Numbered from the stretch's first letter, positions 3,174 to 44,105 are shown. The stretch is DNA of 62,258 nucleotides from an uncultured Planctomycetales bacterium (GCA_964556925.1 CAZKXY010000003.1:1-62258), one strand, 5' to 3'. Numbers and translations are program-made. Notes: generated by a model from the sequence alone, not told the origin.

Positions 3174-4909
3174 CGCCGCGTCAAGCGGCGCCGCTTCTGC
3201 GCGATCCACATATGGAGCTGCTCGCGGGAGAAACAGTTGAGGAGGTGCCTCGGCCCCGCCCACGCGCGCCGCGCCACCCCGAGGCCGATGGCCATGTTGT
3301 CGAGCTGGTCTCGCGCATGGGTGTCGGTCGAAATGGCCAGCATGGCGCCGGCGTCCTTGGCCTGCCGGGCGGCGGTGTCGCAGAGGTCGAGCCGCTTGGG
3401 GTAGGCGTTGATCTCCAGCGCCGTCTGGGTCTCCTGGGCCGCCTTGTAGACCGCGTCGAGGTCAACCGGAGAGGCGTCGCGCTGGCCCATCAGGCGGCCG
3501 GTCGGGTGCGCGATCAGCGTCACGTAGGGATTGCGCATGGCGGTGATGAGGCGCCTCGTCAACATCGCTTCGCCCTGCGTCAATCCCGAGTGGATCGAGC
3601 CGATGACAAAATCCAGTTGGGCCAGCACCTGATCGGGGTAGTCGAGTCGTCCCTCGGCCAGGATATCCACCTCAGCGCCCATGAGCAGGCGGAAGCGCGT
3701 GAAGCGCCTGTTCAGCGCGCGGATCTTCGCCATCTGCTGCCGCAGCCGATCCACAGACATCCCATGGGCGACTTTCAGCGAGGGCGAGTGGTCGCAGATG
3801 GCCAGGTACTGGTAGCCACGCGCCTCCCCCAGCCGGGCGAGATCCTCCAATCGGTCGCTGCCGTCCGACCACGTGGTGTGGATGTGGAAATCCCCCCGGA
3901 TGTCCTCCGCCTCGACCAGCCGTGGCAGCCGGCCGGCCTTGGCCGCTTCGATCTCGCCGGTATCTTCCCGGAGCTCCGGGGGGATCCATCGCAGTCCCAA
4001 CACCCGGTAGACGTCAGCCTCTTCCCTGCCCGCGAGCCAGGCGTTGGCCCTGGCGCGAAACACCCCATACTCGTTGACCTTCAACCCCTGGCGGACCGCC
4101 AGCTCCCTCAAGTGGACGTTGTGCTCTTTCGAACCGGTGAAATACTGGAGCGCGGCCCCGAAACTCTTTGGCGCCACGACCCGCAGGTCCACCTGGAGAC
4201 CCTCGGGCGTTAGGATCGAGGCCTTCGTCGTGCCGGCCGCCAGCACCCGCGCGCAAAATCGGGACGCCTGGAGGGCCTGCATCACCCGGGGCGGATGCGT
4301 GGACGCCGCGAGGAGATCCAAGTCCCCGATGGTTTCCTTCATCCGCCGCAGGCTGCCGGCGGTTGACACCCGGCTCACCCCGGACACCTTCCGCAACAGC
4401 GCCAGCAGCTCATGGGCCAGCGCGAGGGCGATCCCCAAGTGCATCCGCTCGCGGCCGCGTTTGACCACGGCGATCCCTTTGAGGAGGTTGTCCTCCCTCT
4501 TCGCCTGGAAGCCCGGCAGGCCGCGCAGGCGGTGACGGCGCGCCGCGTCTTCCAACTCGCTGACACTGGCAATCCGCAGCCGCTCGGTGAGCAGCTTGGC
4601 CGTCTTCGGACCCAAGCCGGGCACTTCGAGCAGCTCCAACACCCCGCGCGGGATCATGCGTTGAACCTGCTCAATCGCCGCGATGGCCCCGGTCTTCAGG
4701 TACTCGGCGATCTTGTCAGCGAGATCGGCGCCGATGCCGGAGAGCTCCGTGAGCCTGCCCTCCGCCGCAAGGCGTTCCAGATCCCCGCTGAAGCTCTCCA
4801 GGTTCTGCGCGGCGCGCCGATAGGCCCGAATCCGAAACGGGTTCTCCCCGCGGTATTCCAACAGGTCGGCCATCTGCGCGAAGAGCGTGGCGATCTCGTG
4901 CTGCTTCAT
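3170..4909 (-). CDS. polX: DNA polymerase X / PHP 3'-5' exonuclease
   Basis: ENPFRIRAY, GSLRR.KETIGDLD, YFTGSKEHN, PHP HIHTTWSDG; ORF-track extension to 5035 is repeat sequence. Confidence 0.95.
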   Translation of the reverse strand: MKQHEIATLFAQMADLLEYRGENPFRIRAYRRAAQNLESFSGDLERLAAEGRLTELSGIGADLADKIAEYLKTGAIAAIEQVQRMIPRGVLELLEVPGLGPKTAKLLTERLRIASVSELEDAARRHRLRGLPGFQAKREDNLLKGIAVVKRGRERMHLGIALALAHELLALLRKVSGVSRVSTAGSLRRMKETIGDLDLLAASTHPPRVMQALQASRFCARVLAAGTTKASILTPEGLQVDLRVVAPKSFGAALQYFTGSKEHNVHLRELAVRQGLKVNEYGVFRARANAWLAGREEADVYRVLGLRWIPPELREDTGEIEAAKAGRLPRLVEAEDIRGDFHIHTTWSDGSDRLEDLARLGEARGYQYLAICDHSPSLKVAHGMSVDRLRQQMAKIRALNRRFTRFRLLMGAEVDILAEGRLDYPDQVLAQLDFVIGSIHSGLTQGEAMLTRRLITAMRNPYVTLIAHPTGRLMGQRDASPVDLDAVYKAAQETQTALEINAYPKRLDLCDTAARQAKDAGAMLAISTDTHARDQLDNMAIGLGVARRAWAGPRHLLNCFSREQLHMWIAQKRRRLTRR

Positions 4910-5049
4910 CCCACTACCTGCCGGTGTCCCGCCCCGCCAAGGGCGTGGCGGGACGGCCAGCCCCCACAGTCGTCCGCGGCCCGCTGGCCCGGCGGCGCCT
5001 CGATGCGGAGGGGCGGCACGCGCCGCCTGCAGCAAGTAGATGGGATCAT
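4906..5049. repeat. Family A palindromic element A1 (136 bp between two ATGA)
   Basis: Minus strand: ATGA-TCCCATCTACTTGC...GCAGGTAGTGGG-ATGA; left TGA is the MFS stop, right ATG is the polX start. Confidence 0.9.
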
Positions 5050-6242
5050 CCCGTCACCGCGCGAGGATCCGGAACCCGGCGCAACAGGAGGACGCCGATG
5101 ACCAGCAAGCCCATCATGGCCCCGATCGCCTCCTGATAGCGGGACGCCTCCGACACCAACAGCCCCCACAGCAAGGGGCCCAGGATCGAGGAGACGCGGG
5201 CGAAGAACCCCGCCAACCCGAACAACTCGGCGAGCTGGCCTTTGGGGGACAGCTGGACAATGAGCACGCGAGACGTCGCCCACGTCGAGCCCAGGCAAAA
5301 CCCAATGAGCGGCCCGGCAATCCAGAGCCAGGCGGCCGTCGGGCGGATGAGCAGGATGGCGAGGGCCGCGATCCATCCCAGCCAAATCCACGTCAAGGTC
5401 GACTTGGCCCCCCATCGGGCCGTCAGCCGCCCGAATACCAAGGAGCCAGCGACAGCGAAGATCTGACTGAACACGAAGAACCGGATCAGGTCGGCCTCCG
5501 TCATGCCGATGACCTTCTTCGTATAGACCCCCATGAACACCAGCACGGTATTGATGGCGTTGAGGCTGAAGAACGCGGCCCAGAAATACCGCCAGAGGCC
5601 GGCGAGCGCTCTCGCGGACCGGAGGGTCATGGCCAACCGGAGCGCCGCCACCCGCAGCGCCGTGCCCAGGGGCACCCGCTGGCGGGCATCCGGGGCCTCA
5701 CGAATGAGGAGGAAGCTGGGTAGCGCGAACAGCAAGAAGAACACGGCAGAGGGGATGAACGCGGCGTGATGCCCTCCCGCCTTGACGAACGGCCAGAGCA
5801 GGAGCAGTCCTAACGCGCTTCCCAGGTAGCCGAACGAGGCGCCGACCCCTGAGGTCTGACCCAGGCGGTTCGGATCCGTCACGGTCCAGAGCAACGCATC
5901 GTAAAACACCGTGCCAAGCTGATAGCACACGTTCGCCACCGCGAACAACCCAAGCCCAAGGCCGAGATGCGACGTGGACCCAATGGCGATGGTCGCCGCG
6001 ACACAGCCGTAGGTGGTCCAGCGGAGAAACCGGACCCGCTCCCCGGTGGCATCGGAGACCGCCCCGCAGAACGGCATCAAGATCCCGACGCAGATCATGG
6101 ACACGCCCAAGGCCACGCTGTACGAGAGCTCGGGCGCGCCGCGATCCTCGACGACCCAGAGGGGGAAGTAGAACGACAACATCGCGACGGCGAAAAAGGT
6201 GTTGGCGAGGTCGAACAGGGCCCAGGCGAGCACCCGGCCCAT
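5046..6242 (-). CDS. MFS transporter (UMF1/Atg22-like)
   Basis: AWALFDLANTFF start motif, about 12 hydrophobic segments. Confidence 0.9.
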   Translation of the reverse strand: MGRVLAWALFDLANTFFAVAMLSFYFPLWVVEDRGAPELSYSVALGVSMICVGILMPFCGAVSDATGERVRFLRWTTYGCVAATIAIGSTSHLGLGLGLFAVANVCYQLGTVFYDALLWTVTDPNRLGQTSGVGASFGYLGSALGLLLLWPFVKAGGHHAAFIPSAVFFLLFALPSFLLIREAPDARQRVPLGTALRVAALRLAMTLRSARALAGLWRYFWAAFFSLNAINTVLVFMGVYTKKVIGMTEADLIRFFVFSQIFAVAGSLVFGRLTARWGAKSTLTWIWLGWIAALAILLIRPTAAWLWIAGPLIGFCLGSTWATSRVLIVQLSPKGQLAELFGLAGFFARVSSILGPLLWGLLVSEASRYQEAIGAMMGLLVIGVLLLRRVPDPRAVTG

Positions 6243-7480
6243 CACGCAGAGGGACCGCTGAGAAACTCCGGAAGCCACTCCAGCCAGCGGGTTTCCAGTT
6301 TGGGCAGTTTCAGGCGAAGTTCATCGGCCAGTGCCGCCTCCCACGGCGTGCCTTCGGCAATCCCCTTCAGGATCCGTCGGAGGCGCCAGAATCCGTACCG
6401 ACCCACCAGGTAAGTGACGATGCTGTAGGACTGCTCATACGCCAGACCGACCTCTTCCGCCGGCAGGGCGGTCGAGATGTGGTCGGACAGCTCGCGCCAC
6501 GGAATCAGGTGGTTGGCCTGGTGAGCGCGCGCCAGCAACTGCACGGAGCCGCGCAGCTGCGTTCGGCCCTCATACTCTGCCAGCCCCTCGTTCAGCCACG
6601 ACGGACATCTCCCCTTCGCCACGTCGTGGACCAGGGCGTGGGTGTACTCATGAAACAGGATCTGCTTGACCGTCGCTTGGTCGAGCTGCGCGCTGGGCAG
6701 CGGCACCCGGATTTTGCCGTCGAATTGGCCGGCCACCCAGTCCGGCGTCTCCTGGCGCAGGGCGCGGAAGTGCTCGGCGCTATAGATGAGAACGACGAGC
6801 TTGTGCTTCGGCCAATAGGCAAAGTCTGATCCGACGTGGCGACGGGCCTGCAGCAGCGCGTCCCGCACGTCGAAGCCGACCGGCCGCTCCAGGTGCTCCT
6901 CGTACCGCAGGTCGAAAAACGCCTGGGACAGCCGCTCGAACTTGGACTCAATCGGCAGCTCCTGCCTGACGCGCGCCAGCCGCTCCACGAGGCCATCCTG
7001 GCTCGGATCCAGCTCGGCCGCCCGCTCCCACGAGGCCTTCGCCTCTTTCAGCTGTTGCTTCTCGTACTGGATCTCGCCAAGCATGGCATACGCCTGAGGC
7101 AGGTTCGGATTCAACTCAATCGTTTCCTCCAGCGCCCCCAGGGCGGTTGTCAGATCGTGCCGCTGGATCGCTTCATGGGCTTGATTCAAACGGATGTTGG
7201 CCAGGTTCATCCGGAACTGCTCGCTCTCCCCGTCAAGCCGGATCGCCTCCTGCATCTGCTGCGCGGCAAGCCCCCACTGGCCCTGGTTGCCCAGGCTGAC
7301 GCCATAGTTGTTGTAGGCGATTGCGAGCTGCTGGCGAGTGTGGGCGTGGCCCGGCCGCTCGTACACCTGCTGGCGCAGCCGGCTGATCGTCTCGGGCCAA
7401 TTGGGGTCTTCTTCCGCTGCCGGGGCCGATGCGGCCACGCAGGTGGCGAGGAGGACCGCCATCCATCCAATCCGCTTCAT
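6242..7480 (-). CDS. Secreted TPR-repeat protein with peptidase MA-like (gluzincin) domain
   Basis: Signal peptide, TPR-like repeats, HEYTH zinc motif followed by WLNEGLAEY. Confidence 0.85.
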   Translation of the reverse strand: MKRIGWMAVLLATCVAASAPAAEEDPNWPETISRLRQQVYERPGHAHTRQQLAIAYNNYGVSLGNQGQWGLAAQQMQEAIRLDGESEQFRMNLANIRLNQAHEAIQRHDLTTALGALEETIELNPNLPQAYAMLGEIQYEKQQLKEAKASWERAAELDPSQDGLVERLARVRQELPIESKFERLSQAFFDLRYEEHLERPVGFDVRDALLQARRHVGSDFAYWPKHKLVVLIYSAEHFRALRQETPDWVAGQFDGKIRVPLPSAQLDQATVKQILFHEYTHALVHDVAKGRCPSWLNEGLAEYEGRTQLRGSVQLLARAHQANHLIPWRELSDHISTALPAEEVGLAYEQSYSIVTYLVGRYGFWRLRRILKGIAEGTPWEAALADELRLKLPKLETRWLEWLPEFLSGPSA

Positions 7481-8334
7481 GATGTCCCTGCCCCCTGGGG
7501 GGGCAGCACCCACTCGCTGACCAGCCGGAGCACGTCGCCGTTGACGTCCTCATGATGCAGCTCATGGTAGGCGTGGGGAAATTTCACGCAGCGCGTGGGG
7601 CCTGGCACGCGCGCCAGCCAGCGTTCCGCCGCCTCAACGGAGACGATCCGATCCTCGCCGCCACAGAGCAGGAGCACCGGCTGCCGCACGGTGGCCGCCC
7701 GCGCAAGCGCCTCGTCTCTGGCTCGAAGGGTCTCGTGATAGGCCCGCGCGGTCATCCAATGGTGCACCAGCGGGTCGCGCTGGTACGCCTGCACGACCGC
7801 GGGATCATGGCTGAGCCGATGGACGTCGAGGTTCATGGAGAACGCGCATCGCGGCCAGAGGACCGCGCAGCACGCCGCGCCGGCGGCCTCCCACCAGGGG
7901 ATGGGGAATCCCACCTCCAGCAACGGGGACTGCACGATGAGCCGATCCACAGCGGCCGGGTGCTCCAACGCCCACTGGATGGCCACGAGCCCGCCGAAGC
8001 TGTGCCCGAAGAGCGCGTACCGCGTCATCCCAGCGTGTGGCACGAACACCGCCTGCGCCAACGCCGAGAGGTGTTGGACCAGCCGTTTCAGCGATGGGAG
8101 GTCTCCCCGCTGGCCGCCGGAGCGCCCGTGTCCCCATAAATCCGGGGCGGCGACACAGATCCCTTGCCGCGCGAGGGCCGTGGCAAAGGGGCCATACCGC
8201 CCTGCGTGCTCGCCGAAGCCGTGCACGAGGACCACGAGCGCCCTCGTCGCGTCCGGGTGCCAGATCCGGTAGGCATAGGTCGACGCAGAGGAGGGCGCAG
8301 TCCAGTGGCCTTCCCGCGAGGCGACGTCGCTCAT
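7477..8334 (-). CDS. Lysophospholipase / monoglyceride lipase-like alpha/beta hydrolase
   Basis: VHGFGEHAGRY, DLWGHGRS, GHSFGG, HELHHE; resembles PldB-type hydrolases. Confidence 0.9.
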   Translation of the reverse strand: MSDVASREGHWTAPSSASTYAYRIWHPDATRALVVLVHGFGEHAGRYGPFATALARQGICVAAPDLWGHGRSGGQRGDLPSLKRLVQHLSALAQAVFVPHAGMTRYALFGHSFGGLVAIQWALEHPAAVDRLIVQSPLLEVGFPIPWWEAAGAACCAVLWPRCAFSMNLDVHRLSHDPAVVQAYQRDPLVHHWMTARAYHETLRARDEALARAATVRQPVLLLCGGEDRIVSVEAAERWLARVPGPTRCVKFPHAYHELHHEDVNGDVLRLVSEWVLPPQGAGTS

Positions 8335-8462
8335 CCCACACCCTGCCGCTGTCCGCCGGAGGCGGACGGCCAGCCCCCATGGATGTTCGCTGCGCCGCTG
8401 GCCCGGCGGCGCCTGGACGGGTGCCTGCGGCATGCGCCGCCTCCGGCAGGTTGTGGGATCAT
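8331..8462. repeat. Family A element A2 (124 bp between two ATGA)
   Basis: ATGA-TCCCACAACCTGCCGG...GCAGGGTGTGGG-ATGA; spans fadD stop to hydrolase start. Confidence 0.9.
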
Positions 8463-10268: not shown

Positions 10269-12125
10269 TCACAGGATGCCGTCTTCAAGCCAGGCGAACC
10301 GGCCGCCGAGGACCTCCTGGGCCACACCGGTTAATCGCCGGTCCTCATTATCGCCGAGCCGCGTCATGGTCTGCGCGATCCGTCGGCGCGCCAGCCGGCA
10401 GAAGAGGTCGGCCAGGCCCACCGGGCTGGGTTCGGACGGCTGGAGCTGCACCATCGCCTGAGCCTTGGCGCAGGCCGCCGTCATCGCAAAGAGCTCGGCG
10501 CCCACATCGACCAGCCGCCCCAAGAGCTGCTGGCGGACCGCCAGCCGCGTCTGATGGCGCATGGCGCTGTGGAAGAGCGCGCGGGCCAACCGGCGGCTAC
10601 AGCGGTCAATGAACTGCACATGACCTGCCAGGGAGGGGTGCAGCGAGGCATGACGCGGCCACCAGGTCCAGGCGAGCCACTGCCGCGGATACCACCAGGC
10701 ATAGAACCCGAAGGCCGCGAGCGCCGCCCGCAGCTTGCGGGCCGTGGGCTCCGCCGGACTCAGGAGGCGGCCGACAATTCGCATGTGGGCGTCCAGCGCC
10801 TCGCGCGCAATGAACAGGCGCATGATCTGGCTCGTGCCCTCGATGATGAGGTTGATGCGCGCATCGCGCATGATGCGCTCCACCGGCAGGGGCGCCTCGT
10901 GCCTGGCGCGCAGGGAGCCGGCGGTCTCATAGCCCCGCCCGCCGCGGATCTGGAGGGCGTCATCGACAATCCGCCAGCAGGCTTCGGAGCAGAACAGCTT
11001 GGCGATGGCGGCTTCCAGCCGGATGTCCACGGTCTTGCGGTCCACCAGCGCCGAGGCCAGGCCCACCATGGCGTCCATCGCGAAGGTCGTGGCCGCCATC
11101 TCGCCGATCTTCACCGCAATCGCCTCGTGCTTGCCGATCGGCCCGCCCCACTGCTTGCGCTCCTTCGCCCACTGCCGGGTGATCTGCAGGCACCGCTTGG
11201 CCGTGCCGACGCACGCCGACGGGATCGCGATGCGGCCCGCGTTGAGGGTGATGAGCGCCAGCTTCAACCCCATCCCGGCTCCCCAGAGGATGTTCTCCCG
11301 GGGCACCCGGAGATTCGTGAACCGCAGCACGCCGTTCTGGATACCCTTCAGCCCCATGAACTCGCATCGATGGACGACCTCGAACCCCGGCATCGAGCGC
11401 TCCACGATGAAGGCGGTGATCTGCTTCCGCTCCTTGCCGCCCACGGTGACCGACGGGGTCCTGGCCATCACGACGACGATGTCCGCCACCGGACCATTGG
11501 TGCACCAGAGTTTCTCGCCGCTCAAGACGTACGAGTCCCCTCCGTCAGCCGGCGTGGCGGTCGTCTGCATGTTGGCGGGGTCCGAGCCGACGCCAGGCTC
11601 GGTCAGCGCAAACGCCGAGATGGTCCCGCGGGCCAGGCGGGGCAGGTACTTCCGCTTCTGCTCGTCGGTGCCGAAGAGCATCAGCGGCTGCGGCGCGCCG
11701 ATGCTCTGGTGCGCGCTGAGCCATACCGTGGTGGACCCGCAATAGCTGCCCAGCAGGGCGATGGCGCGGTTGTAGTTGGTCTGTGAGAGGCCAAGCCCCC
11801 CGTAGGCCTTCGGGATTTTCATGCCGAAGCAGCCCAAGCGGGCGAGGCCCTCGATGACGCCGGCCGGAAGCTCCCCGGTCCGGTCGATCGCATCCGGATC
11901 CACGGAGGCTTTGAGAAACGCGCCCAGCTGCGCCAGGAACTCATCGCCGATCCGGCGGTCCTCCTCGCTCTGCTCGGGATAGGGGAAGACGAGGTCCGTG
12001 CGCAGCCGCCCCATGAACAGGTCGGCCACGAGGCTGGGGTAGCGCCACTCCGCCTCGCGGGCGGCCTCCGTTACCTCCAGCGCCTCAGGCGAGCCTTTGC
12101 CCAGCAGCGGATCGGCGGCGCTCAT
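10269..12125 (-). CDS. Acyl-CoA dehydrogenase (long, VLCAD-like)
   Basis: FALTEPGVGSD, GEKLWCTNG, RGGRGYE, RINLIIEGT. Confidence 0.93.
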   Translation of the reverse strand: MSAADPLLGKGSPEALEVTEAAREAEWRYPSLVADLFMGRLRTDLVFPYPEQSEEDRRIGDEFLAQLGAFLKASVDPDAIDRTGELPAGVIEGLARLGCFGMKIPKAYGGLGLSQTNYNRAIALLGSYCGSTTVWLSAHQSIGAPQPLMLFGTDEQKRKYLPRLARGTISAFALTEPGVGSDPANMQTTATPADGGDSYVLSGEKLWCTNGPVADIVVVMARTPSVTVGGKERKQITAFIVERSMPGFEVVHRCEFMGLKGIQNGVLRFTNLRVPRENILWGAGMGLKLALITLNAGRIAIPSACVGTAKRCLQITRQWAKERKQWGGPIGKHEAIAVKIGEMAATTFAMDAMVGLASALVDRKTVDIRLEAAIAKLFCSEACWRIVDDALQIRGGRGYETAGSLRARHEAPLPVERIMRDARINLIIEGTSQIMRLFIAREALDAHMRIVGRLLSPAEPTARKLRAALAAFGFYAWWYPRQWLAWTWWPRHASLHPSLAGHVQFIDRCSRRLARALFHSAMRHQTRLAVRQQLLGRLVDVGAELFAMTAACAKAQAMVQLQPSEPSPVGLADLFCRLARRRIAQTMTRLGDNEDRRLTGVAQEVLGGRFAWLEDGIL

Positions 12126-12253
12126 CCCACACCCTGCCGGCGTCCGCCGGAGGCGAACGGCCAGCCCCCACAGTTGCCCGCTGCGCCGCTGGCCCGGCGG
12201 CGCCTCGACAGCGGCGTGCGGCAGACGCCGCCTCCGGCAGGTGGTGGGGTCAT
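12122..12253. repeat. Family A element A3 (124 bp between two ATGA)
   Basis: ATGA-CCCCACCACCTGCCGG...GCAGGGTGTGGG-ATGA; spans dehydrogenase stop to ACAD start. Confidence 0.9.
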
Positions 12254-13263
12254 CGAACCGCGGCCACCACGTTGACCGGGGATCCGGCCAGGAAACCCGT
12301 GATGTTCGTCACAGTCGTCTCCAGGATCCGCTGGAGCGCCTCCCTGCTGTCGAACGCGATGTGCGGCGTGATGACGACGTTCTCCCGATGGAGCAGGATG
12401 TGGTTCTTCAGCGCGGTCGCGAGCTTGTCCTTGGGGAAATCCTTGGAGAGCAGCTGGCGCTCCTCCTTGACAAGCTCCTCCCCTTCCAGCACATCCAGGC
12501 CGGCGCCCCCAAGCATCCCTTCATCCAGCGCCCACACCAGCGCATCGGTGTCCACCAAGCCGCCGCGGGCCGTGTTGATGAACAGCGCCCCCCGCTTCAT
12601 GAGGCGGAAGGCGGCCCGGCTCATCAGATGGTGCGTGGCGGGGGTGTACGGGACGTGGAGGCTGACGATGTCCGAGCGCCGCAGGAGCGTCTCGAGCGGC
12701 ACGTACCGGAAGTCCAGGACCTCGCTCAGGAAGACGTTTTTCCTGACGTCGTGCACCAGGACGGCCATCCCAAATCCCTTGGCCATCTTGATCACGTGCA
12801 GGCCGATGTGCCCCCCGCCGACCACCCCGAGGGTTTTGCCCTTCAGGTCAAACCCTTGCAGCCCCGCGAGCGAGAAGTCCCCCTTGATCGTCTTCACGTA
12901 GGCCTTGTGGATATTGCGGGAGAGGGCCAGGATCAGCGCGAAGGTATGCTCGGCGACGGTGTTCTCGCCGTAGGACGGAACGTTGGAGACGACAATCCGG
13001 CGCGTGCGGCAGGCCGAGAGATCGATGTGGTCCACGCCCGTGGACCGGGTCACGAGGCATCGCAGCCGGGGGAGTTTCGCCAGGATCGGTCGGGTCAGCG
13101 TGGAGTAGATGAAGACCGAGAGAATCTCCGCCTGGGCCGCCGGACGAACGGTCTCGTCGGTGAGCGGAGCAGGAATCAGCCGGAGATGGGAGGTGTGCGG
13201 GGCGAGCGCCCGGGCCAGGTACCGGCGCTCCCAGGGCGCCGTTTCGAAACAGACGACCTTCAT
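12250..13263 (-). CDS. D-isomer-specific 2-hydroxyacid dehydrogenase (D-lactate dehydrogenase-like)
   Basis: TRSTGVDHID, GVVGGGHIG, INTARGGLVD, GLDVLE, TPHIAF. Confidence 0.92.
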   Translation of the reverse strand: MKVVCFETAPWERRYLARALAPHTSHLRLIPAPLTDETVRPAAQAEILSVFIYSTLTRPILAKLPRLRCLVTRSTGVDHIDLSACRTRRIVVSNVPSYGENTVAEHTFALILALSRNIHKAYVKTIKGDFSLAGLQGFDLKGKTLGVVGGGHIGLHVIKMAKGFGMAVLVHDVRKNVFLSEVLDFRYVPLETLLRRSDIVSLHVPYTPATHHLMSRAAFRLMKRGALFINTARGGLVDTDALVWALDEGMLGGAGLDVLEGEELVKEERQLLSKDFPKDKLATALKNHILLHRENVVITPHIAFDSREALQRILETTVTNITGFLAGSPVNVVAAVR

Positions 13264-13403
13264 CCCACACCCTGCCGCCGCCCCGCCCCGCCAAGGGCGG
13301 GGCGGGGCGGCCAGCCCTCATGGATGTCCGCTGCGCCGCTGGCCCGGCGGCGCCTCGAACGCTGGGTGAGGCACGCGCCGCCTGCGGCAGGGTGTGGGGT
13401 CAT
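13260..13403. repeat. Family A element A4 (136 bp between two ATGA)
   Basis: ATGA-CCCCACACCCTGCCGC...GCAGGGTGTGGG-ATGA; upstream gene stops about 12 nt earlier. Confidence 0.9.
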
Positions 13404-15595: not shown

Positions 15596-15606
15596 CCACC
15601 CTCACC

Positions 15607-15648
15607 GGTGTCAGACACCTTTCAAAGCGGGAAAGGTGTCTGACACCT
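15607..15648. repeat. Family C double palindrome C1
   Basis: GGTGTCAGACACCT-TTCAAAGCGGGAA-AGGTGTCTGACACCT. Confidence 0.9.
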
Positions 15649-15652
15649 CTTG

Positions 15653-16846
15653 TTAGCGCTCGAAGATGATCGTGGCGCCTTGGCCGCCGCCCACGCAGGC
15701 GCTGGCCACGCCGATGGTCACGTTGCGCCGCTTCATCTCATGCAGCAGCGTGACGGCGATGCGGGTCCCGCTGGCGCCCACCGGATGCCCCAGCGCGATG
15801 GCCCCGCCGTTGACGTTCGTGACCTCCCGGTTGAACTTCAGCACCCGCTCACACGCGAGGAAGGTGGCGGCAAACGCCTCGTTGAGCTCGAAGAGCTGGA
15901 CGTCCTTGAGCGCCACCCCCGCCTTCTTGAGCGCCATCGGGATGCTCAGGGTCGGTCCCAGGCCCATCCGCTGCGGCTCCACCCCGGCGAACGCATAGGC
16001 GCGGATCTTCGCAAGCGGCGTGTAGCCCAGCGCCTTCGCCCGCTCCGCCGACATCACGAGCACCATCGCCGCCCCATCGGCGTTGAAGCAGCTGTTGCCG
16101 GAGGTCACGGAGCCGCCTTCCTTGAACACCGGCGGGTACTGGCTGAGGAGCTGTTCGTTGAGCCCCGCGTTGATGCCTTCATCCTGCGTGAACGGTTCCG
16201 CCGGCAGCTCGCGCCCCATCGACCGCTTGGGCACCATGATCGTCACCAGCTCGTCCTTGAACCGCTGCTCCCGGGCGGCCCGGAAGGCGCGCTGGTGTGA
16301 CAGCAGCGCGAACTGATCCTGCTCGGCCCGGCTGATCGAAAATTCCGCCACGAGGTTCTCCGCAGTCTGGCCCATGATCTGCCCGCAGACCGGATCGGTG
16401 AGCCCTTCCCAGACGGTATCGATCATCTCGGAATGCCGCAGCCGCTTGCCCCACCGCAGGTCGCGGCTGACATAGGGGGAGGCGCTCATGCACTCCGTCC
16501 CGCCAGCGATCTGCACGTCGCGGTCGCCACAGAGGATGTTCTGGCAGGCGCTGACGATCGCCTGCAGGCCTGAGGCGCAGTTGCGCTGCACGGTATACCC
16601 CGGCACGGTCGTGGGGATCCCCGCGCGCAACGCGATGACCCGCGCGATGTTCGGCGCGTCCGAGCCCTGCCCCACGCATCCGACAATGACCTCCTCCACC
16701 TGCTCCGGCTTCAGGGCGGTTCGGCGCAGGAGCTCCCTGACGGCCACCTCACCTAACCCCTGGGCGGTCAACTGCTTCAGCGCCCCGCCGAACACCCCCT
16801 GCGGGGTCCGGATGCCCTCCACAATGACGATGTCACGCGCCATCAT
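15653..16846 (-). CDS. fadA: Acetyl-CoA acyltransferase (thiolase)
   Basis: VQRNCASG, ELNEAFA, GGAIALGHPVGASG, CVGGGQG. Confidence 0.92.
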   Translation of the reverse strand: MMARDIVIVEGIRTPQGVFGGALKQLTAQGLGEVAVRELLRRTALKPEQVEEVIVGCVGQGSDAPNIARVIALRAGIPTTVPGYTVQRNCASGLQAIVSACQNILCGDRDVQIAGGTECMSASPYVSRDLRWGKRLRHSEMIDTVWEGLTDPVCGQIMGQTAENLVAEFSISRAEQDQFALLSHQRAFRAAREQRFKDELVTIMVPKRSMGRELPAEPFTQDEGINAGLNEQLLSQYPPVFKEGGSVTSGNSCFNADGAAMVLVMSAERAKALGYTPLAKIRAYAFAGVEPQRMGLGPTLSIPMALKKAGVALKDVQLFELNEAFAATFLACERVLKFNREVTNVNGGAIALGHPVGASGTRIAVTLLHEMKRRNVTIGVASACVGGGQGATIIFER

Positions 16847-21464: not shown

Positions 21465-21830
21465 TTATGCTGCGCTGGAAGTCCGGCGGGCGATCCGGTC
21501 GCGGACGAACTGCGCGATCACCGCCCGATCCTGCTCGGTGATCTCGGTGAAAAAGATGCCCATGCGGTACGTCGCCCGTCCGGCGGGCGAGACCGCCGGA
21601 TCGACGCGGACCACGACCCCGGTGCAGCGAATCGGCGCCACGCGCCCGCCGTTCGGGACGTCGAATTGCAACTGCAGCTTCGTCATCGGGGAGATGAACC
21701 GGTCCACCGTGCAGTAGGCCCCGATCGTGCTGAGGTTGTGGGTTTCGGTCTGGATGGGCGCGCCGGGCTCGCGAATGGCCAGGGTGACGCGCTCGGCAAC
21801 GCGAGGCGCCTGACGGCGTTCAGCGCTCAT
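21465..21830 (-). CDS. PilZ domain protein
   Basis: ERRQAPR (RxxxR) and NLSTIG (N/DxSxxG) motifs. Confidence 0.85.
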   Translation of the reverse strand: MSAERRQAPRVAERVTLAIREPGAPIQTETHNLSTIGAYCTVDRFISPMTKLQLQFDVPNGGRVAPIRCTGVVVRVDPAVSPAGRATYRMGIFFTEITEQDRAVIAQFVRDRIARRTSSAA

Positions 21831-21965
21831 CCCACACCCTGCCGCCGTCCCGCCCCACCAAGGGCGGGGCGGCCAGCCCCCATGGCTGTCCGCTGCGCCG
21901 CTGGCCCGGCGGCGCCTCGATGCGGAGGGGCGGCACGCGCCGCCTCCGGCATGCAGCGGGATCAT
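21827..21965. repeat. Family A element A5 (131 bp between two ATGA)
   Basis: ATGA-TCCCGCTGCATGCCGG...GCAGGGTGTGGG-ATGA; spans HIT stop to PilZ start. Confidence 0.9.
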
Positions 21966-22312
21966 CCCGGCGGCCAGCGCATCGGGCGTCCGCCCAACAG
22001 GTGGAGGTGCAGATGCCATACCGACTGCCCCGCGCCGGCGCCGCAGTTGAGGACCAGGCGGTAGCCGGAGGACACGAGCTGGTGTTGGCGGGCCAACCGG
22101 TTGGCGAACTGCACGGCGCGCCCCATGAGGGTCGTGTGGGCGTCGGTCAGATCCGCGAGCGATGGCAGGTGCTCGGTCGGGATGATCAAGAGGTGGGTGG
22201 GCGCCTGGGGGTTGATGTCCTTGAAGGCCAACAGGCCGTCTTCCTCCGCGACAATCGCCGCCGGCAGCTGCCGCGCGGCGATCCGGCAGAAGAGGCAGTC
22301 GGACGGGCTCAT
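21962..22312 (-). CDS. hinT: Histidine triad nucleotide-binding protein
   Basis: CLFCRI, DINPQAPTH, HLHLH triad, WPPG end. Confidence 0.93.
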   Translation of the reverse strand: MSPSDCLFCRIAARQLPAAIVAEEDGLLAFKDINPQAPTHLLIIPTEHLPSLADLTDAHTTLMGRAVQFANRLARQHQLVSSGYRLVLNCGAGAGQSVWHLHLHLLGGRPMRWPPG

Positions 22313-22449
22313 CCCCCCACCCGCCGCGGCTGCGCCGTCGGCGCAGCCCTGTGCGGCCGCTTGATGTCCCCTCCTTCCCCCACACCAGCCGTTCCTCTCC
22401 GGGAAACGCCTGTCAGGTGGAACGGCTGGGCGGCGGGTGGGGGGATCAT
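22309..22449. repeat. Family A variant A6 (133 bp between two ATGA)
   Basis: 17-bp perfect inverted arms ATCCCCCCACCCGCCGC / GCGGCGGGTGGGGGGAT; internal CAGCCGTTCC...GGAACGGCTG hairpin shared with A7. Confidence 0.8.
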
Positions 22450-26258: not shown

Positions 26259-27347
26259 TTACGCGCTGACGTACTGCGCCAAGACCCGACGCACGAGGCG
26301 CTCCGACACCGCCTCGCTGACCCCCGCATGGCCGATCCGGGTGAGGATCACCCAGCGGGGGGTGCCGCGGACGAACTTTTTGTCGTAGCGCAGCGCCCAC
26401 TGCACGGCCCGGCGCGAGACCCCGCGGGCGCACACCGGCAATCCCGCCCGCGCGATCAACCGGATGACCCGCGCCCCTTCGGGCGGAGCGAGCCGTCCCA
26501 GCGCGACGCTGAGGGCTGTCGCCGCGCACATCCCGATGGCGATCGCCTCGCCATGCGTCAGGCGGCGAAACCCGGTGGCCGCCTCCAGCGCGTGCCCGAG
26601 CGTGTGCCCGAAATTGAGGTGGATGCGTCGGTCGCGGGTGTCCCGCTCATCCTGCGAGACGACTCGCGCCTTGATGGCGGCGGATCGCTCGACCATGACC
26701 CGTGCCGCGCGCGGCTCCACCCGCAGGCAGGCCTCCAGGTGCGTTTCGAGAAACACCCAGAGCGCGCGATCGGCGATGGCCGCGTACTTGAGCACCTCGG
26801 CGAATCCCGACCGCCGCTGGCGGAGGGGCAGGCTGCCCAGCAGGCGGAGGTTGCTGAAGACCAGGCGCGGCTGGTAGAACGCGCCGAGCAGGTTCTTGCC
26901 CTGGGGCAGATCGACGCCGACTTTGCCGCCGATCGCCGAGTCCACCTGGGCCAGCAGCGTGGTCGGCACCTGGACATACGGTAGGCCTCGACGATAGATC
27001 GCGGCCACAAACCCGGTCAGATCCCCCACGACCCCGCCGCCGAACGCGATGAGCGTGGGCAGGCGCAGCGGCGGGCGGCGCGCCAGCCGCTGGATGAGCC
27101 GCTGCGCCATCGCGAGCGATTTCGACCTCTCCGCTTCCGGGACAGTGATCATCGACAGCCGCCATCCCGCCCGCGCGAGCGGCCGCAGCAGCGCGGCCCC
27201 GTACCGGTCCAGCAACGACCGGTGCGACACCACCCACCCTTCCGGCGGCAGCCGGGCCGCGGTGAGCCATCGCGGCAGCGCGTCGAACGAATCGGCCAGG
27301 ACAACCGGGTAGGACCGCTCACCGAGGGACACCGTGATCGGATTCAT
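26259..27347 (-). CDS. aroB: 3-dehydroquinate synthase
   Basis: GGGVVGDL.GF, PTTLLAQVDSAIGGK, LNFGHTLGHALE, HGEAIAIG. Confidence 0.96.
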   Translation of the reverse strand: MNPITVSLGERSYPVVLADSFDALPRWLTAARLPPEGWVVSHRSLLDRYGAALLRPLARAGWRLSMITVPEAERSKSLAMAQRLIQRLARRPPLRLPTLIAFGGGVVGDLTGFVAAIYRRGLPYVQVPTTLLAQVDSAIGGKVGVDLPQGKNLLGAFYQPRLVFSNLRLLGSLPLRQRRSGFAEVLKYAAIADRALWVFLETHLEACLRVEPRAARVMVERSAAIKARVVSQDERDTRDRRIHLNFGHTLGHALEAATGFRRLTHGEAIAIGMCAATALSVALGRLAPPEGARVIRLIARAGLPVCARGVSRRAVQWALRYDKKFVRGTPRWVILTRIGHAGVSEAVSERLVRRVLAQYVSA

Positions 27348-27583
27348 CCCCCCACCTGCAGGGAGCCTGCGATGGCCAGACGGGTCCTGCCGCTGCGCAG
27401 CCCCCGTCTGGCAAGCGCACCGCTTGCGGGCTGCGGGTGGCCAGGTACTCCGCGAGCCGCGAATTCGGATTTTGCGAGCCCTCGTCGTGAGCAGAGCGCA
27501 GCAAAATTCGCTGAGCGGCGCGCGGAGACCTGGCCAGGACCCGCAGCGAGCGGAACGTCTGCCCCGCGAACAAGGCATGTCAT
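27344..27583. repeat. Composite 232-bp insert between two ATGA, containing family B element B1 (27433-27544)
   Basis: A-type right end GCAGGTGGGGGG-ATGA at aroB start; B1 closely matches the reverse complement of 37361-37472. Confidence 0.8.
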
Positions 27584-29873: not shown

Positions 29874-30416
29874 TTACCCCAGCGTCCGGATCCCCATCCG
29901 GACGTAACTCACGGCGGAGACCACGGTCAGGATCGCCGCAAGGAAGAGGAGCGACGGCGTGATCGGCAACCCCAGCAGGACCGACGTGATGACCAGCATC
30001 TGGGCGGCCGTCGTGCATTTCCCGACCCAACTCGGCTGGACGGTCCATCGGCCCTTGATGGTAAACAGCACGATGGCGCCGGCGACCAGGAGCACGTCGC
30101 GGGAGATGACGATGAGGTTGAACCACGCCGGGATGCGCATCCCGGGAGGCAGCCCCTGGATCATGGAGCAGCTGATCAGGGTGCTGAGGATGAGCGCCTT
30201 GTCGGCGATGGGATCGAGCAGCGTGCCCAGCTCGCTCTGCTGATTCGTCAGACGGGCCAGGAACCCGTCGGCGGCATCCGAGGCGATGCCGATGACGAAC
30301 AATCCCAACGCGAGGAACCGGAGGGCATCCCGGTCCGGATGGTAGTACACGAGCGACGCGACGATCCCCGGCACCAATAAGATCCGGAAGATCGAAATCT
30401 TATTGGCCAGGTTCAT
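29874..30416 (-). CDS. CDP-alcohol phosphatidyltransferase (PgsA-like)
   Basis: NLANKISIFR, SDAADGFLAR, GTLLDPIADK. Confidence 0.9.
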   Translation of the reverse strand: MNLANKISIFRILLVPGIVASLVYYHPDRDALRFLALGLFVIGIASDAADGFLARLTNQQSELGTLLDPIADKALILSTLISCSMIQGLPPGMRIPAWFNLIVISRDVLLVAGAIVLFTIKGRWTVQPSWVGKCTTAAQMLVITSVLLGLPITPSLLFLAAILTVVSAVSYVRMGIRTLG

Positions 30417-30560
30417 CCCACTCCCTGCCGCGGGCCCCGCCGTAGGTGGGGCCCGTGTGCGGACTCAAAATCTTTCATCCCCCAAGCACACCAGCCGTTC
30501 CGTCCTACAGAGCGAGCCCTTCGGGATCGGAACGGCTGAGCGGCAGGTAGATGGGATCAT
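30413..30560. repeat. Family A variant A7 (140 bp between two ATGA)
   Basis: ATGA-TCCCATCTACCTGCCGC...GCGGCAGGGAGTGGG-ATGA at the pgsA-like start. Confidence 0.85.
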
Positions 30561-30670
30561 CCCGCGGCCTGCCCCCCACTGTCCTCCGGTCCGCCTCCGG
30601 CGGACCGGCACTCGTTATCCGCCTGTCGAGCCCCCGCCTTCGGCTGAGGCAGACAGGTGGAGGGGGCGCG
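30561..30670. repeat. Additional hairpin module abutting A7
   Basis: Arms GCCCCCCACTGTC / GACAGGTGGAGGGGGC; contains GTCCGCCTCCGGCGGAC hairpin also seen in A2/A3. Confidence 0.6.
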
Positions 30671-31072: not shown

Positions 31073-31115
31073 AGGTGTCAGACACTTTTCCCGCTTTGAA
31101 AGGTGTCTGACACCT
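31073..31115. repeat. Family C double palindrome C3 (in predicted 5' UTR)
   Basis: AGGTGTCAGACACTTTTCCCGCTTTGAAAGGTGTCTGACACCT. Confidence 0.88.
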
Positions 31116-31119
31116 GTTT

Positions 31120-36923: not shown

Positions 36924-37320
36924 CGAGGTAGTGCTGCAAGATGAGCTGCGCCGCGATCTGATCGATGGCCGCTTTCCGCGTGCGGCGCGACGCCCTCGTG
37001 TGCTGGAGCATCCGCTGGCCCTGAACCGTCGTGAGCCGCTCATCCACGAGCACGAGCGGCACCGGCACCCGTCGGCGAAGCAGGTCGGCAAACGCCGTCA
37101 CCTTCTGCGCCTGGATGCCGCGCTCGCCGCGCAGCGTGAGCGGCAGGCCGACCACGATCCGCGCCACGCCGTGCGCCGCCACCAAGGCCCCCACCGCGTC
37201 GGCATCCGCCGCCGCGGCCGTGCGCGTCAGGACCGTCAGCCGCTGCGCGGTCAGGCCGAGCGGATCGCTCATCGCCACGCCGATGCGCCGGTCGCCCACG
37301 TCCAGCCCCAGGACCCGCAT
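36901..37320 (-). CDS. ruvX: Holliday junction resolvase-like / pre-16S maturation nuclease
   Basis: LGLDVGDRRIGVA, VVGLP, DERLTT, IDQIAA. Confidence 0.93.
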   Translation of the reverse strand: MRVLGLDVGDRRIGVAMSDPLGLTAQRLTVLTRTAAAADADAVGALVAAHGVARIVVGLPLTLRGERGIQAQKVTAFADLLRRRVPVPLVLVDERLTTVQGQRMLQHTRASRRTRKAAIDQIAAQLILQHYLDATRQTT

Positions 37321-37360
37321 CAGCCGACAAACCGTTTCACAACGCCCTCTCTATACTGAG

Positions 37361-37472
37361 GCGGGTCTTGGCCAGGTCTCCGCTCGCCGCTCAGCGAATG
37401 TTGCTGCGCTGCGCACCATCTGACGGCTCGCAACATTCGAATTCGCGGCTCGCGGAGCGCCTGGCCACCCGC
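37361..37472. repeat. Family B element B2 (112 bp)
   Basis: Imperfect long hairpin; inverted near-copy of 27433-27544. Confidence 0.85.
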
Positions 37473-42714: not shown

Positions 42715-42737
42715 GCGGCAGCGGCGGGCGCAGCGGG

Positions 42738-42794: not shown

Positions 42795-42799
42795 GACGA

Positions 42800-43222: not shown

Positions 43223-43233
43223 GTCGAGTCTCC

Positions 43234-43965
43234 TCAGTGCTGACGAAACTGCTGCCAGAGGCGGCGGAACCGCGCCTCGTAGAGCACGTGGTACAGCGCT
43301 TGTTTCTCCGGAAACGCGCGCGCCACGGCCTCCCGCAGCGCCTGCTGCTGGATCTCGATGTCGATCAGCGGCACCTCGCCGCAGACGATCATCTCGCAGA
43401 TCCGGTCCGCCTGCCGCTGCAGCGCCCTGACGGCCTCGTCTTCCTGACAGAGCGCGGTCAGCCGCGCGAGCAGCTCCTCCTGTACGGCGTCGCGGTTCGC
43501 CGGGGAGAGCGGAATCAGCTCGACGTCCTTCCGGTGCTTCAGCGCGTCCAGCACCGGCAGCGGGCTGACGCCGGCCGTGGCCACGATCGACGGGCCCCGA
43601 TCGAACGCCTCCTGCACCGCCTCGGCCAAGCGGCTCGAGCAAAACTCCATCTTGCCCAGCTCGTCAAGGAAGAGGATGAGCGCGTGCCGCACGCCCCGCT
43701 GGATCACCGGGATGGCGACGTCCTCCAGCACCGAGACGTTCACGCGATAGGGCCCCACCCGCGGACCCTGCTCCATCCGCCGGTGCGCCAACAAGACCTG
43801 CCGGCCGTCCAGCGGGCTGAGCCAGAACCCCACGCGCTGTTCCTGCTCCCGGCATTCCTCCGTCACGAAGCCGTCAACGGGAAACGGGCGCAGGGCCTGG
43901 GCGAGCCCCTGGATGAGCGTCGTCTTGCCCGTCCCGGGGCGGCCGACGATCATGAGGTGCTTCAT
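43234..43965 (-). CDS. THEP1-like NTPase with extra C-terminal helical domain
   Basis: GRPGTGKTT, GF.TEE.RE, VGPY.V, LDELGKME. Confidence 0.88.
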   Translation of the reverse strand: MKHLMIVGRPGTGKTTLIQGLAQALRPFPVDGFVTEECREQEQRVGFWLSPLDGRQVLLAHRRMEQGPRVGPYRVNVSVLEDVAIPVIQRGVRHALILFLDELGKMEFCSSRLAEAVQEAFDRGPSIVATAGVSPLPVLDALKHRKDVELIPLSPANRDAVQEELLARLTALCQEDEAVRALQRQADRICEMIVCGEVPLIDIEIQQQALREAVARAFPEKQALYHVLYEARFRRLWQQFRQH

Positions 43966-44105
43966 CCCACTACCTGCCAGTGTCCCGCCCCACCAAGGGC
44001 GGGGCGGGACGGCCAGCTCCCATAGGTATCCGCGGCGCCGCTGGCCCGGCGGCGCCTCGATGCGGAGGGGCGGCACGCGCCGCCTCCGGCAGGTGGTGGG
44101 GTCAT
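43962..44105. repeat. Family A element A8 (136 bp between two ATGA)
   Basis: ATGA-CCCCACCACCTGCCGG...GCAGGTAGTGGG-ATGA at the NTPase start. Confidence 0.9.

Follow-up and report, generated by a model that had tools for sequence, protein, structure and literature searches.

A MITE-like family of palindromic elements at ATGA stop/start junctions: probable mobile repeats that would restore both codons of their target and may relay translation

Bacterial MITEs, such as Correia/CREE, ERIC, RUP and Nezha, are short, non-autonomous elements with terminal inverted repeats and a short target duplication. REP sequences and REPINs are built on a palindromic unit of 20–40 nt with a GTAG or CGTC tag and have an associated RAYT gene. 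IS200/IS605-derived elements have neither terminal inverted repeats nor a target duplication; their subterminal hairpins are similar to each other, and they are inserted in one orientation 3' of a fixed tetra- or pentanucleotide. Integron attC sites carry R''/R' core sites (RYYYAAC/GTTRRRY) and are linked to an IntI integrase. MIRUs occur as tandem arrays whose copy number varies, which is why they serve for typing.

MIRU insertions have also been placed at start codons, where an ORF within the unit is coupled to the next gene at −4 nt (Supply et al. 1997, as summarised in PMC12548453); MIRUs are flanked by tetranucleotide direct repeats, and both empty and filled sites are known between species (PMC3184786). 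An earlier statement about the DNA studied here, that no described element has its kind of targeting, does not hold in view of these reports. Rickettsia palindromic elements (RPEs; ∼100–150 bp) are tolerated in translated sequence because they keep to the frame and leave it open (PMC10969869). For transposases of the IS1031 group (IS5 family), PMC12016507 gives 3-bp TNA duplications, TGA included.

The window, which is the whole stretch of 62 258 nt that was analysed, is high-GC DNA from an uncultivated lineage; the closest named homologues of its proteins come from MAGs labelled Candidatus Omnitrophica. Eight palindromic elements had been listed by a sequence-only reading, and all of them were recovered at their positions (Table 1), in one orientation on the gene (−) strand, as ATGA-YCCC...GGG-ATGA. 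A ninth copy (W9), which that reading had missed, and a degenerate tenth were added, so that the 62-kb window holds 9–10 copies; more were found on other contigs. No recognisable duplication was seen at the flanks of the tenth element, the interior of which is related to L065:5417–5501.

Table 1. Elements in the window, their flanking genes and the corresponding sites in relatives.
Element	Coordinates	Strand	Subfamily, length	Upstream gene end	Downstream gene start	Bridging frame	Orthologous site in relatives
A1	4906..5049	(−)	1, 144 nt	MFS transporter stop	PolX	47 codons, open; +1/−1 indel pair preserves frame	single ATGA at PolX start; upstream gene differs
A2	8331..8462	(−)	1, 132 nt; hairpin 12 nt shorter	acyl-CoA ligase stop	alpha/beta hydrolase	open	CACATGAGCG (L070)
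A3	12122..12253	(−)	1, 132 nt	2-hydroxyacid dehydrogenase stop	acyl-CoA dehydrogenase	open	ACGATGACGC (L070)
A4	13260..13403	(−)	1, 144 nt	stop 12 nt before element	2-hydroxyacid dehydrogenase	open	stop-N4/N11-ATGA (L056 and L070)
A5	21827..21965	(−)	1, 139 nt; 5-nt deletion	HIT stop	PilZ	lost	GGGATGAGC (L058); GGGATGACC (L067); a different 153-nt element in L056
A6	22309..22449	(−)	2, 141 nt	stop 5 nt before element	HIT	open	empty (L058 and L068)
W9	27344..27583	(−)	240 nt; ATGA/ATGA flanks	YjeF_N stop	dehydroquinate synthase	79 codons, open	plain ATGA overlap (L072 and L074)
A7	30413..30560	(−)	2, 148 nt		CDP-alcohol phosphatidyltransferase	broken by internal stop	stop-N5/N8-ATGA (L073 and L074)
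Tenth, family-like, directly upstream of A7	∼30572..30666	(−)	degenerate; CCCCCTCCACCTGTC...GACAGTGGGGGG				
A8	43962..44105	(−)	1, 144 nt	TAG stop 7 nt before element	NTPase	open	GTGA start (L073, sole relative found)

The element proper reads 5'-YCCCAC(C/A)ACCTG...CAGGTGGTGGGA-3'. Its terminal motif CGGCAGGGTGTGGGATGA (three mismatches or fewer) occurs nine times against 0.16 expected from shuffles, and an internal 19-mer occurs seven times against 0.76 expected. Terminal inverted repeats of 12–15 nt, YCCCAC(C/A)ACCTGCCG / CGGCAGGTGGTGGGA, are present in all copies and are all that the two subfamilies in the window (A1–A5 with A8; A6 and A7) have in common; the interiors are unrelated, yet always palindromic. 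The same ends enclose other unrelated interiors in L056:129–281, L068:17113–17229, L063:3084–3247 and W9, as expected if the ends alone are recognised. W9 is family-like at its right end only, and its positions 40–151 are an inverted copy of a palindromic repeat at 37361–37472. Copies are single, span 117–240 nt and contain no transposase gene. A search with an interior-only pattern, independent of the flanks, yielded five new independent subfamily 1 copies, all of which carry ATGA/ATGA flanks. Among 116 loci checked, the viral contigs scanned held no copy.

Filled and empty sites were compared in syntenic relatives with the same gene order and a protein identity of ∼74–83 % (about 80 %). The genes flanking the elements belong to core metabolism and are conserved, as is their order. 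In all copies the downstream gene has its conserved start at the right-hand ATG, with N-termini that match those of the relatives, as had been proposed for the first eight; in A1, A2, A3 and A5 the upstream ORF stops at the left-hand TGA. A single ATGA had been predicted for the empty sites, and this is what close relatives have for eight of the nine window copies: the prediction stood for A2–A7, for W9 and for the PolX start next to A1, with A8 as the exception. Filled sites have two ATGA where empty sites have one, in keeping with the proposal that insertion restores both the stop and the start codon.

These comparisons bear on an alternative to transposition, in which the sequences would be either a fixed ancestral intergenic RNA spacer (regulatory or structural) or the attC-like borders of cassettes in an integron-like system. 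Relatives do differ by single genes (2-hydroxyacid dehydrogenase, hydrolase, MFS transporter) that adjoin elements in the window and in L068, and imperfect palindromes with conserved ends and variable interiors are attC-like. However, the orthologous junctions are empty, relatives do not carry the element sequence as a fixed spacer, and in L056 and L070 these variable genes are present without an element; the empty junctions largely refute this alternative. The ends are also unlike the attC cores RYYYAAC/GTTRRRY, the window ORFs scanned contain no integrase domain, the flanking core genes keep their order, and Rfam gave no match at the gathering threshold, the sole hit being at chance level (E = 0.7). 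This alternative is considered extremely improbable.

Both strands of the window together contain 428 ATGA sites; by estimate, ∼28 of them coincide with start codons and 13 lie between genes away from any start, and all nine window insertions (9/9) are at start codons. Nine ATGA overlaps that had been reported as unoccupied were all found as TCAT on the + strand at ORF ends, and eight of them also hold up under a stricter test that asks for a stop-like and a start-like context together. The length of the duplication had been given as 4 bp (ATGA), which three exceptional copies fit less well than a 3-bp T(G/A)A with a terminal A borne by the element. L062:820–961 is flanked by ATAA/ATAA at a TAATG junction; L068:19888–20004 reads C-TGA[element]A-TGA-TG, and together with its empty L058 orthologue, GTCCTGATG, it is consistent with duplication of TGA (3 bp) and an A supplied by the element. 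The duplicated core is therefore probably T(G/A)A, judging from these junctions, and the 3-bp reading suggests an element YCCCAC...GTGGGA whose own terminal A restores ATG.

Insertion would thus occur at T(G/A)A, nearly always at a TGA that belongs either to an ATGA stop/start junction or to an ATG-A start codon. Three target bases would be duplicated and the terminal A of the element would make the right junction ATGA in every case; with upstream stop and downstream ATG both restored, no protein would be altered. That the family is a mobile element which rebuilds stop and start codons is regarded as very likely. Its description as a non-autonomous repeat family agrees with the domain searches: the window ORFs scanned gave only housekeeping-type matches, for example recA, alaS, his, trp and lepA, or no match at all, with no transposase and no Y1/RAYT domain among them, and a transposase domain was likewise absent from the precomputed Pfam hits of the syntenic gene tables. 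Transposition may be of the DDE type, possibly by an IS5/IS1031-like enzyme with a TNA target.

The orientation of the interior relative to the T(G/A)A core is identical in 14/14 copies of subfamilies 1 and 2. Such fixed orientation counts against DDE transposition, because a symmetric transpososome acting at a TNA target that is itself quasi-palindromic would not produce it. Selection for an open frame was considered as its cause and rejected, because most subfamily 1 and 2 copies are open when reversed too. Strict orientation relative to a non-palindromic tetranucleotide is what would be expected of HUH/Y1 mobilisation (IS200/IS605- or RAYT-like), in which a single strand of YCCC...GGGATGA would be inserted 3' of ATGA on the lagging-strand template; there would then be no true duplication, the right-hand ATGA being the element's own cleavage site. 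In line with this, the 4-nt target resembles the right end of the element (GGGATGA stands on the left in five of the eight listed window copies), the elements are rich in hairpins, and the top strand of the element, on which the genes lie, is G-rich and, if G-richness marks the leading strand, would be exposed as lagging-strand template. However, it is the terminal inverted repeat that is conserved between subfamilies, while the subterminal hairpins differ wholly between subfamilies and also between the two ends; the ATAA/ATAA and CTGA/ATGA copies fit a target duplication and not a fixed right end; inspection of the alignment showed that the tetranucleotides 5' of the two hairpin feet, left and right, are dissimilar, whereas 'guide' sequences for identical cleavage sites should be alike; and the ORF scan, as stated, found no Y1 or RAYT domain. 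HUH/Y1 mobilisation is accordingly held to be unlikely.

Folding predictions gave free energies of −73 to −110 kcal mol−1 with z-scores of −4.9 to −7.4. In every member a closing stem begins 1–4 nt from the left ATGA and ends 1–3 nt from the right ATGA; this GC-rich stem of 14–15 bp is predicted to take in the right arm together with the start codon's AU, and of the four folds run with the flanking ATGA, three had the AU paired. The transcript would form a very stable closing stem and, in most types, three hairpins, and the downstream start would be buried in this structure.

In 13/20 catalogued copies the left ATG begins a frame that stays open up to the right TGA and that overlaps, as ATGA, the codons on either side; this per-copy count is not independent because the subfamily 1 copies are closely related. 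By interior type the frame is open in five of six unrelated interiors. By hand calculation, the chance of at least five of six is 0.018 from length alone (1/3 per type) and ∼4 × 10−4 when absence of stops is included. 'Open' adds little beyond 'length divisible by 3' because stop-free frames are common at high GC. Three separate indel events keep the frame: A1 has the +1/−1 pair, A2/A3 share −12 and L062b has −3; among the indel events of subfamily 1 it was preserved in just 3/5. In A5, where the 5-nt deletion has removed the bridging frame, the left ATG is in frame with PilZ and adds an N-terminal extension of 45 residues. A7, L063b and L062a are without a bridging frame, and in L068:19888 the left ATG is replaced by CTG.

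With an open frame of this kind, coupling would be relayed across the element and not broken. Ribosomes would enter at the left ATG, either in overlap with the upstream stop or by the original RBS of the gene, and would leave at the right TGA, in −4 overlap with the downstream ATG; they would be relayed as in the MIRU proposal, and translation through the element would most likely keep the downstream gene expressed. From this analysis, preservation of coupling by a relay ORF is given slightly better than an even chance.

The sequence-only reading had proposed the opposite, namely that separation of stop and start uncouples translation and that the downstream gene is translated from an RBS (AGGG/AGGT) in the right arm. 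Purine-rich AGGG/AGGT is indeed present 9–12 nt before the right ATG, and the downstream genes of the four copies without a usable bridging frame (A7, L063b, L062a, L068:19888) are apparently intact. Against this stand the pairing of the right arm, through the AU of the AUG, in the closing stem, the excess of in-frame lengths and open frames with compensating indels, and the left ATG of A5, which is now in frame with the downstream gene. Neither part of the proposal is supported, and we consider it improbable. A further mechanism would have the stem juxtapose stop and AUG, so that a terminating ribosome melts the stem and reinitiates while the interior stays untranslated, as in a shunt. The position of the closing stem near both ATGAs in every member, whatever the interior, is consistent with this, and copies without a bridging frame would be accounted for too. 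It leaves the in-frame length excess unexplained, however, and offers no help for A4, A6, A7 and A8, in which the upstream stop lies away from the left junction; to our knowledge there is no bacterial precedent for shunt-like bypass over ∼130 nt. This mechanism is rated lower still. The reading favoured as a whole, with somewhat more confidence than the relay ORF taken by itself, is a MITE-like non-autonomous element with T(G/A)A duplication and relay translation.

Compared with known systems, the elements resemble bacterial MITEs in being small dispersed copies without transposase coding capacity, with terminal inverted repeats, a short target duplication (filled against empty sites) and subfamilies that have the ends alone in common; they differ from MITEs in lying almost exclusively at stop/start junctions and in fixed orientation, and the window ORFs scanned yielded no cognate IS with matching ends. 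A 3-bp TGA duplication would be exactly what IS1031-group elements make, whereas the terminal repeat YCCCACCACCTG is unlike the end of ISLrh (GAACCTG...), the one IS1031-group end compared. With REP/REPIN and IS200/IS605-derived elements they share an intergenic position, hairpin formation and orientation specificity. Unlike REP/REPIN they have YCCCAC ends, no GTAG/CGTC tag and no 20–40 nt unit, and they carry terminal inverted repeats and a co-varying duplication; with IS200/IS605-derived elements orientation and tetranucleotide specificity are shared (14/14), but inverted repeats are present, the hairpins differ and the flanks co-vary. Like an RPE, the L061 copy extends a small ORF and supplies its C-terminal tail; RPEs, however, lie inside genes and become part of the protein, whereas the present elements lie between genes as a separate mini-cistron.

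The likeness to MIRUs is functional: both are small repeats between co-transcribed genes, with an internal ORF that overlaps the flanking codons as ATGA, and insertion with minimal effect on expression has been proposed for MIRUs. MIRUs are mycobacterial and 40–100 bp long, whereas the present elements come from another phylum, are single and measure 117–240 nt. They further differ from MIRUs in their strong terminal inverted repeats of 12–15 nt, in a predicted closing stem that usually encloses three hairpins, and in the restoration of ATG, which would here be achieved by the terminal A of the element together with the duplicated TGA. Compared by description, the elements are a functional analogue of MIRUs rather than members of that family.

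All eight palindromic elements (A1-A8) listed in the sequence-only reading were found again at their stated positions, and on the gene strand each reads ATGA-(T/C)CCC...GGG-ATGA; nearly all genes of the window (G+C content 68.4%) lie on the - strand. The right-end motif CGGCAGGGTGTGGGATGA occurred nine times in the window at up to three mismatches (0.16 expected) and an internal 19-mer seven times (0.76 expected). The copies were divided by interior into two subfamilies; a ninth copy (W9), missing from the earlier list, and a degenerate tenth were added (Table). W9 is one of several cases in which the family ends enclose an unrelated interior, the others being L056 at the A5 site (153 nt), L068 at the A1 site (117 nt), a second L068 copy at a GTPase/NUDIX junction, and L063:3084-3247 (164 nt). 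L063:3084-3247 and L068:17113-17229 were turned up when terminal inverted repeats between any 4-mer direct repeats were screened for, a search too noisy in GC-rich DNA for quantification. Two orthologous junctions thus hold different family members in different lineages, so that either the same target was reused or one element was replaced by another.

The interior of W9 (~27433-27544) is an inverted copy, 87% identical, of another palindromic repeat of the window (the fourth repeat in the Table), and W9 therefore looks chimeric or nested. At the SAM_HAT/GDPD junction of L056, positions 2340-2380 read ATGA-ACCCCCACACCT-CTGCAT-AGGTGTGGGGG-TGA, which, judged by its sequence, looks like an internally deleted element of two terminal repeats alone; short GATGAAGGG-like repeats come after it. 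An unrelated 88-nt palindrome with ATGA/ATGA flanks was seen in L068 at the A4 site.

Features of the window and orthologous junctions in relatives (coordinates refer to the window)
Feature	Coordinates	Members or gene context	Sequence or state in relatives
Terminal-repeat model of the element family			YCCCACCACCTG
Interior subfamily 1		A1-A5, A8	core AGGCGCCGCCGGGCCAGCGG
Interior subfamily 2		A6, A7	core CAGCCGTTCC...GGAACGGCTGG
A1		PolX start	ATGA overlaps in L056, L058; other gene upstream there
A2		ligase to hydrolase	empty: L070 CACATGAGCG
A3		dehydrogenase to acyl-CoA dehydrogenase	L070 ACGATGACGC; L067 (ECH to ACAD) TCGATGACAC
A4		hydratase to dehydrogenase	L056 TAA-CTGC-ATGAAAG; L070 TGA-N11-ATGAACG
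A5		HIT to PilZ	empty: L058 GGGATGAGC; L067 GGGATGACC; L068 TAATGA
A6		upstream of HIT	L058 TGA-GCC-ATGAGGG; L068 TGA-N22-ATGAGCG
A7		Gly-zipper to CDP-alcohol phosphatidyltransferase	L073 TAG-N5-ATGAATT; L074 TAA-N8-ATGAACC
A8		NTPase start	GTGA start in L073
W9, 240 nt, ATGA both sides	27344-27583	YjeF_N stop / dehydroquinate synthase start	L072 ATCATGATCT; L074 CGCATGACCG
Degenerate tenth element	~30572-30666	directly upstream of A7	
Second repeat family	15606-15651, 24317-24362, 31073-31118, 50191-50258, 54619-54664	short intergenic gaps	AGGTGTCAGACACCTTTC...GAAAGGTGTCTGACACCT
Third repeat	47591-47692, 56484-56585, 50114-50154	just upstream of gene starts, e.g. hisD, HhH-GPD glycosylase	GGACCGCTTCCCTTTTCCTC...GAGGAAAAGGGAAACGGTCC, then TCCGAATCA(T/C)GCAGG
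Fourth palindromic repeat	37361-37472	between NTP-transferase and ruvX	GGTGGCCAGG...GAATTCG...CCTGGCCA

Relatives at ~74-83% protein identity share the gene order of the window and supplied orthologous junctions (L numbers, public or metagenome loci) for comparison. The prediction that empty sites would carry a single ATGA was borne out: relatives have one ATGA and lack the repeat, with GTGA in its place for A8 in L073. N-termini downstream of the elements are conserved (MKQHEIA, MNLANKI etc.), which identifies the right-hand ATG as the genuine start codon for each of the nine copies in the window. At the A7-equivalent junction of L072, a different, AT-richer insert of 98 nt (16524-16621) with inverted repeats GATTACAGTGAT...ATCACTGTAATC ends at the ATGA start. 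An 89-nt spacer with short direct repeats GTGGCTAAGTGGCGAAGTGGCTAGGTGG lies between acyl-CoA dehydrogenase and ligase in L056 (11867-11955) and is absent from the window and L058.

The GC3-based gene finder was incomplete, so coordinates were taken from ORFs, public calls on syntenic loci and N-terminal conservation. In the public record, the hydrolase after A2 (L054/L055 13693-14649; window 7477-8433) is called with 318 instead of 285 amino acids, 33 codons too long, from an ATG inside A2; the PolX start called in L068 lies 36 nt downstream of its proper position. The elements thus mislead automatic start-codon prediction.

Metagenomes were scanned with a pattern from the element interior only, which recovers copies independently of their flanks. 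Five more independent subfamily-1 copies were obtained (L059, L060/L061, L062:8122, L063/64/66 and L065), all five with ATGA/ATGA flanks; the flank bias noted earlier is hence not a search artefact. Of 428 ATGA sites on both strands of the window, an estimated ~28 coincide with start codons, and 13 are intergenic without being at a start. Insertions are at start codons in nine of nine cases, and none of the 13 intergenic non-start sites is occupied (own estimate ~0.03). This may reflect real targeting, or else a longer persistence of elements where nothing but precise excision is tolerated.

The extent of the duplicated unit was read from four copies at unusual sites. L062:820-961 (subfamily 2) has ATAA/ATAA flanks at a TAATG stop/start junction, which shows that the flanks vary along with the target. 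L068:19888-20004 reads GCGTCC-TGA-[TCCCACC...GGTGGGA]-TGA-TGCC (empty orthologue in L058: GTCCTGATG); C precedes its left TGA, yet its right junction is ATGA. L065:5389-5588 lies at a plain stop codon, between a left GTGA and a right A-CGA, and the murC start follows 28 nt further; the L061 copy lies within a small ORF, in its 3' end. On the simplest reading of these junctions, the element would be YCCCAC...GTGGGA, its terminal repeat being symmetric (T...A); the duplicated unit would be three bases long, T(G/A)A, and the element would supply the A of the right-hand ATG. The base before ATGA is G at 13 of 19 occupied sites versus two of nine unoccupied overlaps (hand count), which hints at a wider target that looks like the GGGATGA end of the element itself. 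On the gene strand, TGGGATC (TGGGATCATGA) stands before the unoccupied ATGA overlap at 19826 (window 19826-19836); it is similar to an element right end and could be chance or an excision scar.

The sequence-only reading had proposed that insertion uncouples translation and that the right arm acts as a substitute RBS. Open frames argue against the former when copies are translated from the left ATG: A1, A2, A3, A4, A6, A8, W9, L059, L062b (the L062:8122 copy), L063a, L065, L056a (L056:129-281) and L068a (L068:17113-17229) have a length that is a multiple of 3 and contain no stop before the right-hand TGA, itself overlapping the ATG of the next gene. A5 has lost 5 nt, so that its left ATG and the PilZ start share one open frame, which gives an N-terminal extension. 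Indels were read from an alignment of 11 subfamily-1 copies. The frame was kept in three separate events: A2/A3 have lost 12 nt, L062b has lost 3 nt, and A1 carries a +1/-1 pair that leaves its peptide scrambled and the frame intact; the two frame-breaking changes are the in-frame fusion in A5 and -1 in L061, a copy that is not at a start codon. A bridging version occurs in five of six interior types (hand-calculated 0.018 by length alone). This evidence is good and not conclusive, since the copies are interrelated and frames without stops are frequent in DNA of 68% G+C. Window 37320-37345 (gene strand) holds an upstream ORF of six codons, GTGAAACGGTTTGTCGGCTGA, whose terminal TGATG overlaps the ruvX start and which may be a small coupling uORF.

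The predicted RNA fold of subfamily 1 consists of a closing stem of the terminal repeats and three hairpins (A4: -110 kcal/mol, z = -7.4). The same architecture was obtained for A6, A7 and L068a, and a closing stem enclosing one long central hairpin for L056a, with energies of -73 to -93 kcal/mol and z from -4.9 to -6.8 for these four. In three of four folds that took in the flanking ATGA, the stem reaches the AU of the downstream AUG, so that independent initiation from an RBS in the right arm is unlikely; the folds imply that the downstream gene would need a ribosome that either reads across the element or opens the stem from the left junction. In the subfamily-1 alignment, hairpin 1 has a hypervariable apical loop, and the stems are almost invariant. 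Stem positions with G-U (11) and with A-C (6), counted by hand and examined for RNA-level selection, were not decisive.

Relative to the T(G/A)A core, the interior points the same way in 14 of 14 subfamily-1 and -2 copies. Selection for an open frame was rejected as the cause, because most of these copies are open when reversed too; the fixed orientation suggests that either the mechanism is asymmetric, and possibly single-strand, or the function is tied to one strand. Transposase or integrase domains were absent from the window ORFs scanned: the proteins flanking elements are ordinary core gene products (PolX, acyl-CoA ligase, acyl-CoA dehydrogenase, enoyl-CoA hydratase, HIT, PilZ, dehydroquinate synthase etc.), and the other ORFs include recA, alaS and the his and trp operons. 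Longer elements bounded by these ends were looked for in all fetched loci, and none was found. IS1031-group (IS5 family) transposases make 3-bp TNA duplications, TGA included (PMC12016507), which by analogy may be a lead to the enzyme; no IS matching the element ends was found.

The closest named homologues belong to MAGs labelled 'Candidatus Omnitrophica bacterium', and the same genome was found in JGI sample 3300022563 and ENA ERZ27245685. Scanning of a genome collection with an internal 20-mer gave 53 single matches in unrelated taxa, none with terminal repeats; the collection lacks the source species or this core sequence. A scan of viral contigs with the right end gave no real copy among 116 loci checked. 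Rfam gave no match at the gathering threshold and, in E-value mode, one chance-level miRNA match (E = 0.7); a tRNA scan gave none. A protein search with the three-frame element translation matched P0241 alone, an ORF reading through the L061 copy, and subfamily 1 thus seldom enters public data as protein. Two further repeats share the window (Table): the second family, a 46-nt double palindrome in both internal arrangements, is REP-like or terminator-like, and the third (~100 nt) contains a hairpin.

Translational coupling via ATGA overlaps is very common, and how such junctions tolerate change is little understood. It is possible, if rather doubtful, that the elements are adapted to stop/start junctions, the terminal A and the duplicated stop rebuilding the start, and the hand-over being kept by the hairpin and a mini-cistron translated from the left ATG to the right TGA, or by a shunt across the closing stem. 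Such an element would be invisible to selection and removable by precise excision alone, and its copies would form same-orientation recombination sites that could explain single-gene gains and losses beside elements in conserved operons. Comparison of the window with L056, L058, L067, L068 and L070, in which the remaining gene order is conserved, showed presence or absence of an MFS transporter (5046-6278), an alpha/beta hydrolase (7477-8334) and a 2-hydroxyacid dehydrogenase (12250-13263). Variable genes adjoin elements in the window (all three) and in L068 (MFS, dehydrogenase); L056 and L070 carry some of the same genes without elements.

The elements are structurally MITE-like and do not belong to the REPs, ERIC, Correia elements or attC sites. 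Their closest functional precedent are MIRUs, which have tetranucleotide direct repeats and occur as empty and filled sites (PMC3184786). The earlier statement that no element with such targeting had been described cannot be upheld beside this precedent. The family is classified as palindromic, bounded by terminal inverted repeats and using the MIRU strategy; its host lineage is related to MAGs labelled Candidatus Omnitrophica. We know of no description of the start-codon rebuilding rule, that is, duplicated TGA plus an element-borne A. To our knowledge, MIRUs are the sole described repeats that insert at start codons with an internal ORF coupled to the host gene, by a mechanism never worked out. 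The same solution now appears in an unrelated, uncultivated phylum, where clean empty/filled pairs, end-sharing subfamilies and a simple rule make coupling (by relay ORF or hairpin), site choice and enzyme testable; if the adaptation to stop/start junctions is true, the MIRU strategy was invented a second, independent time.
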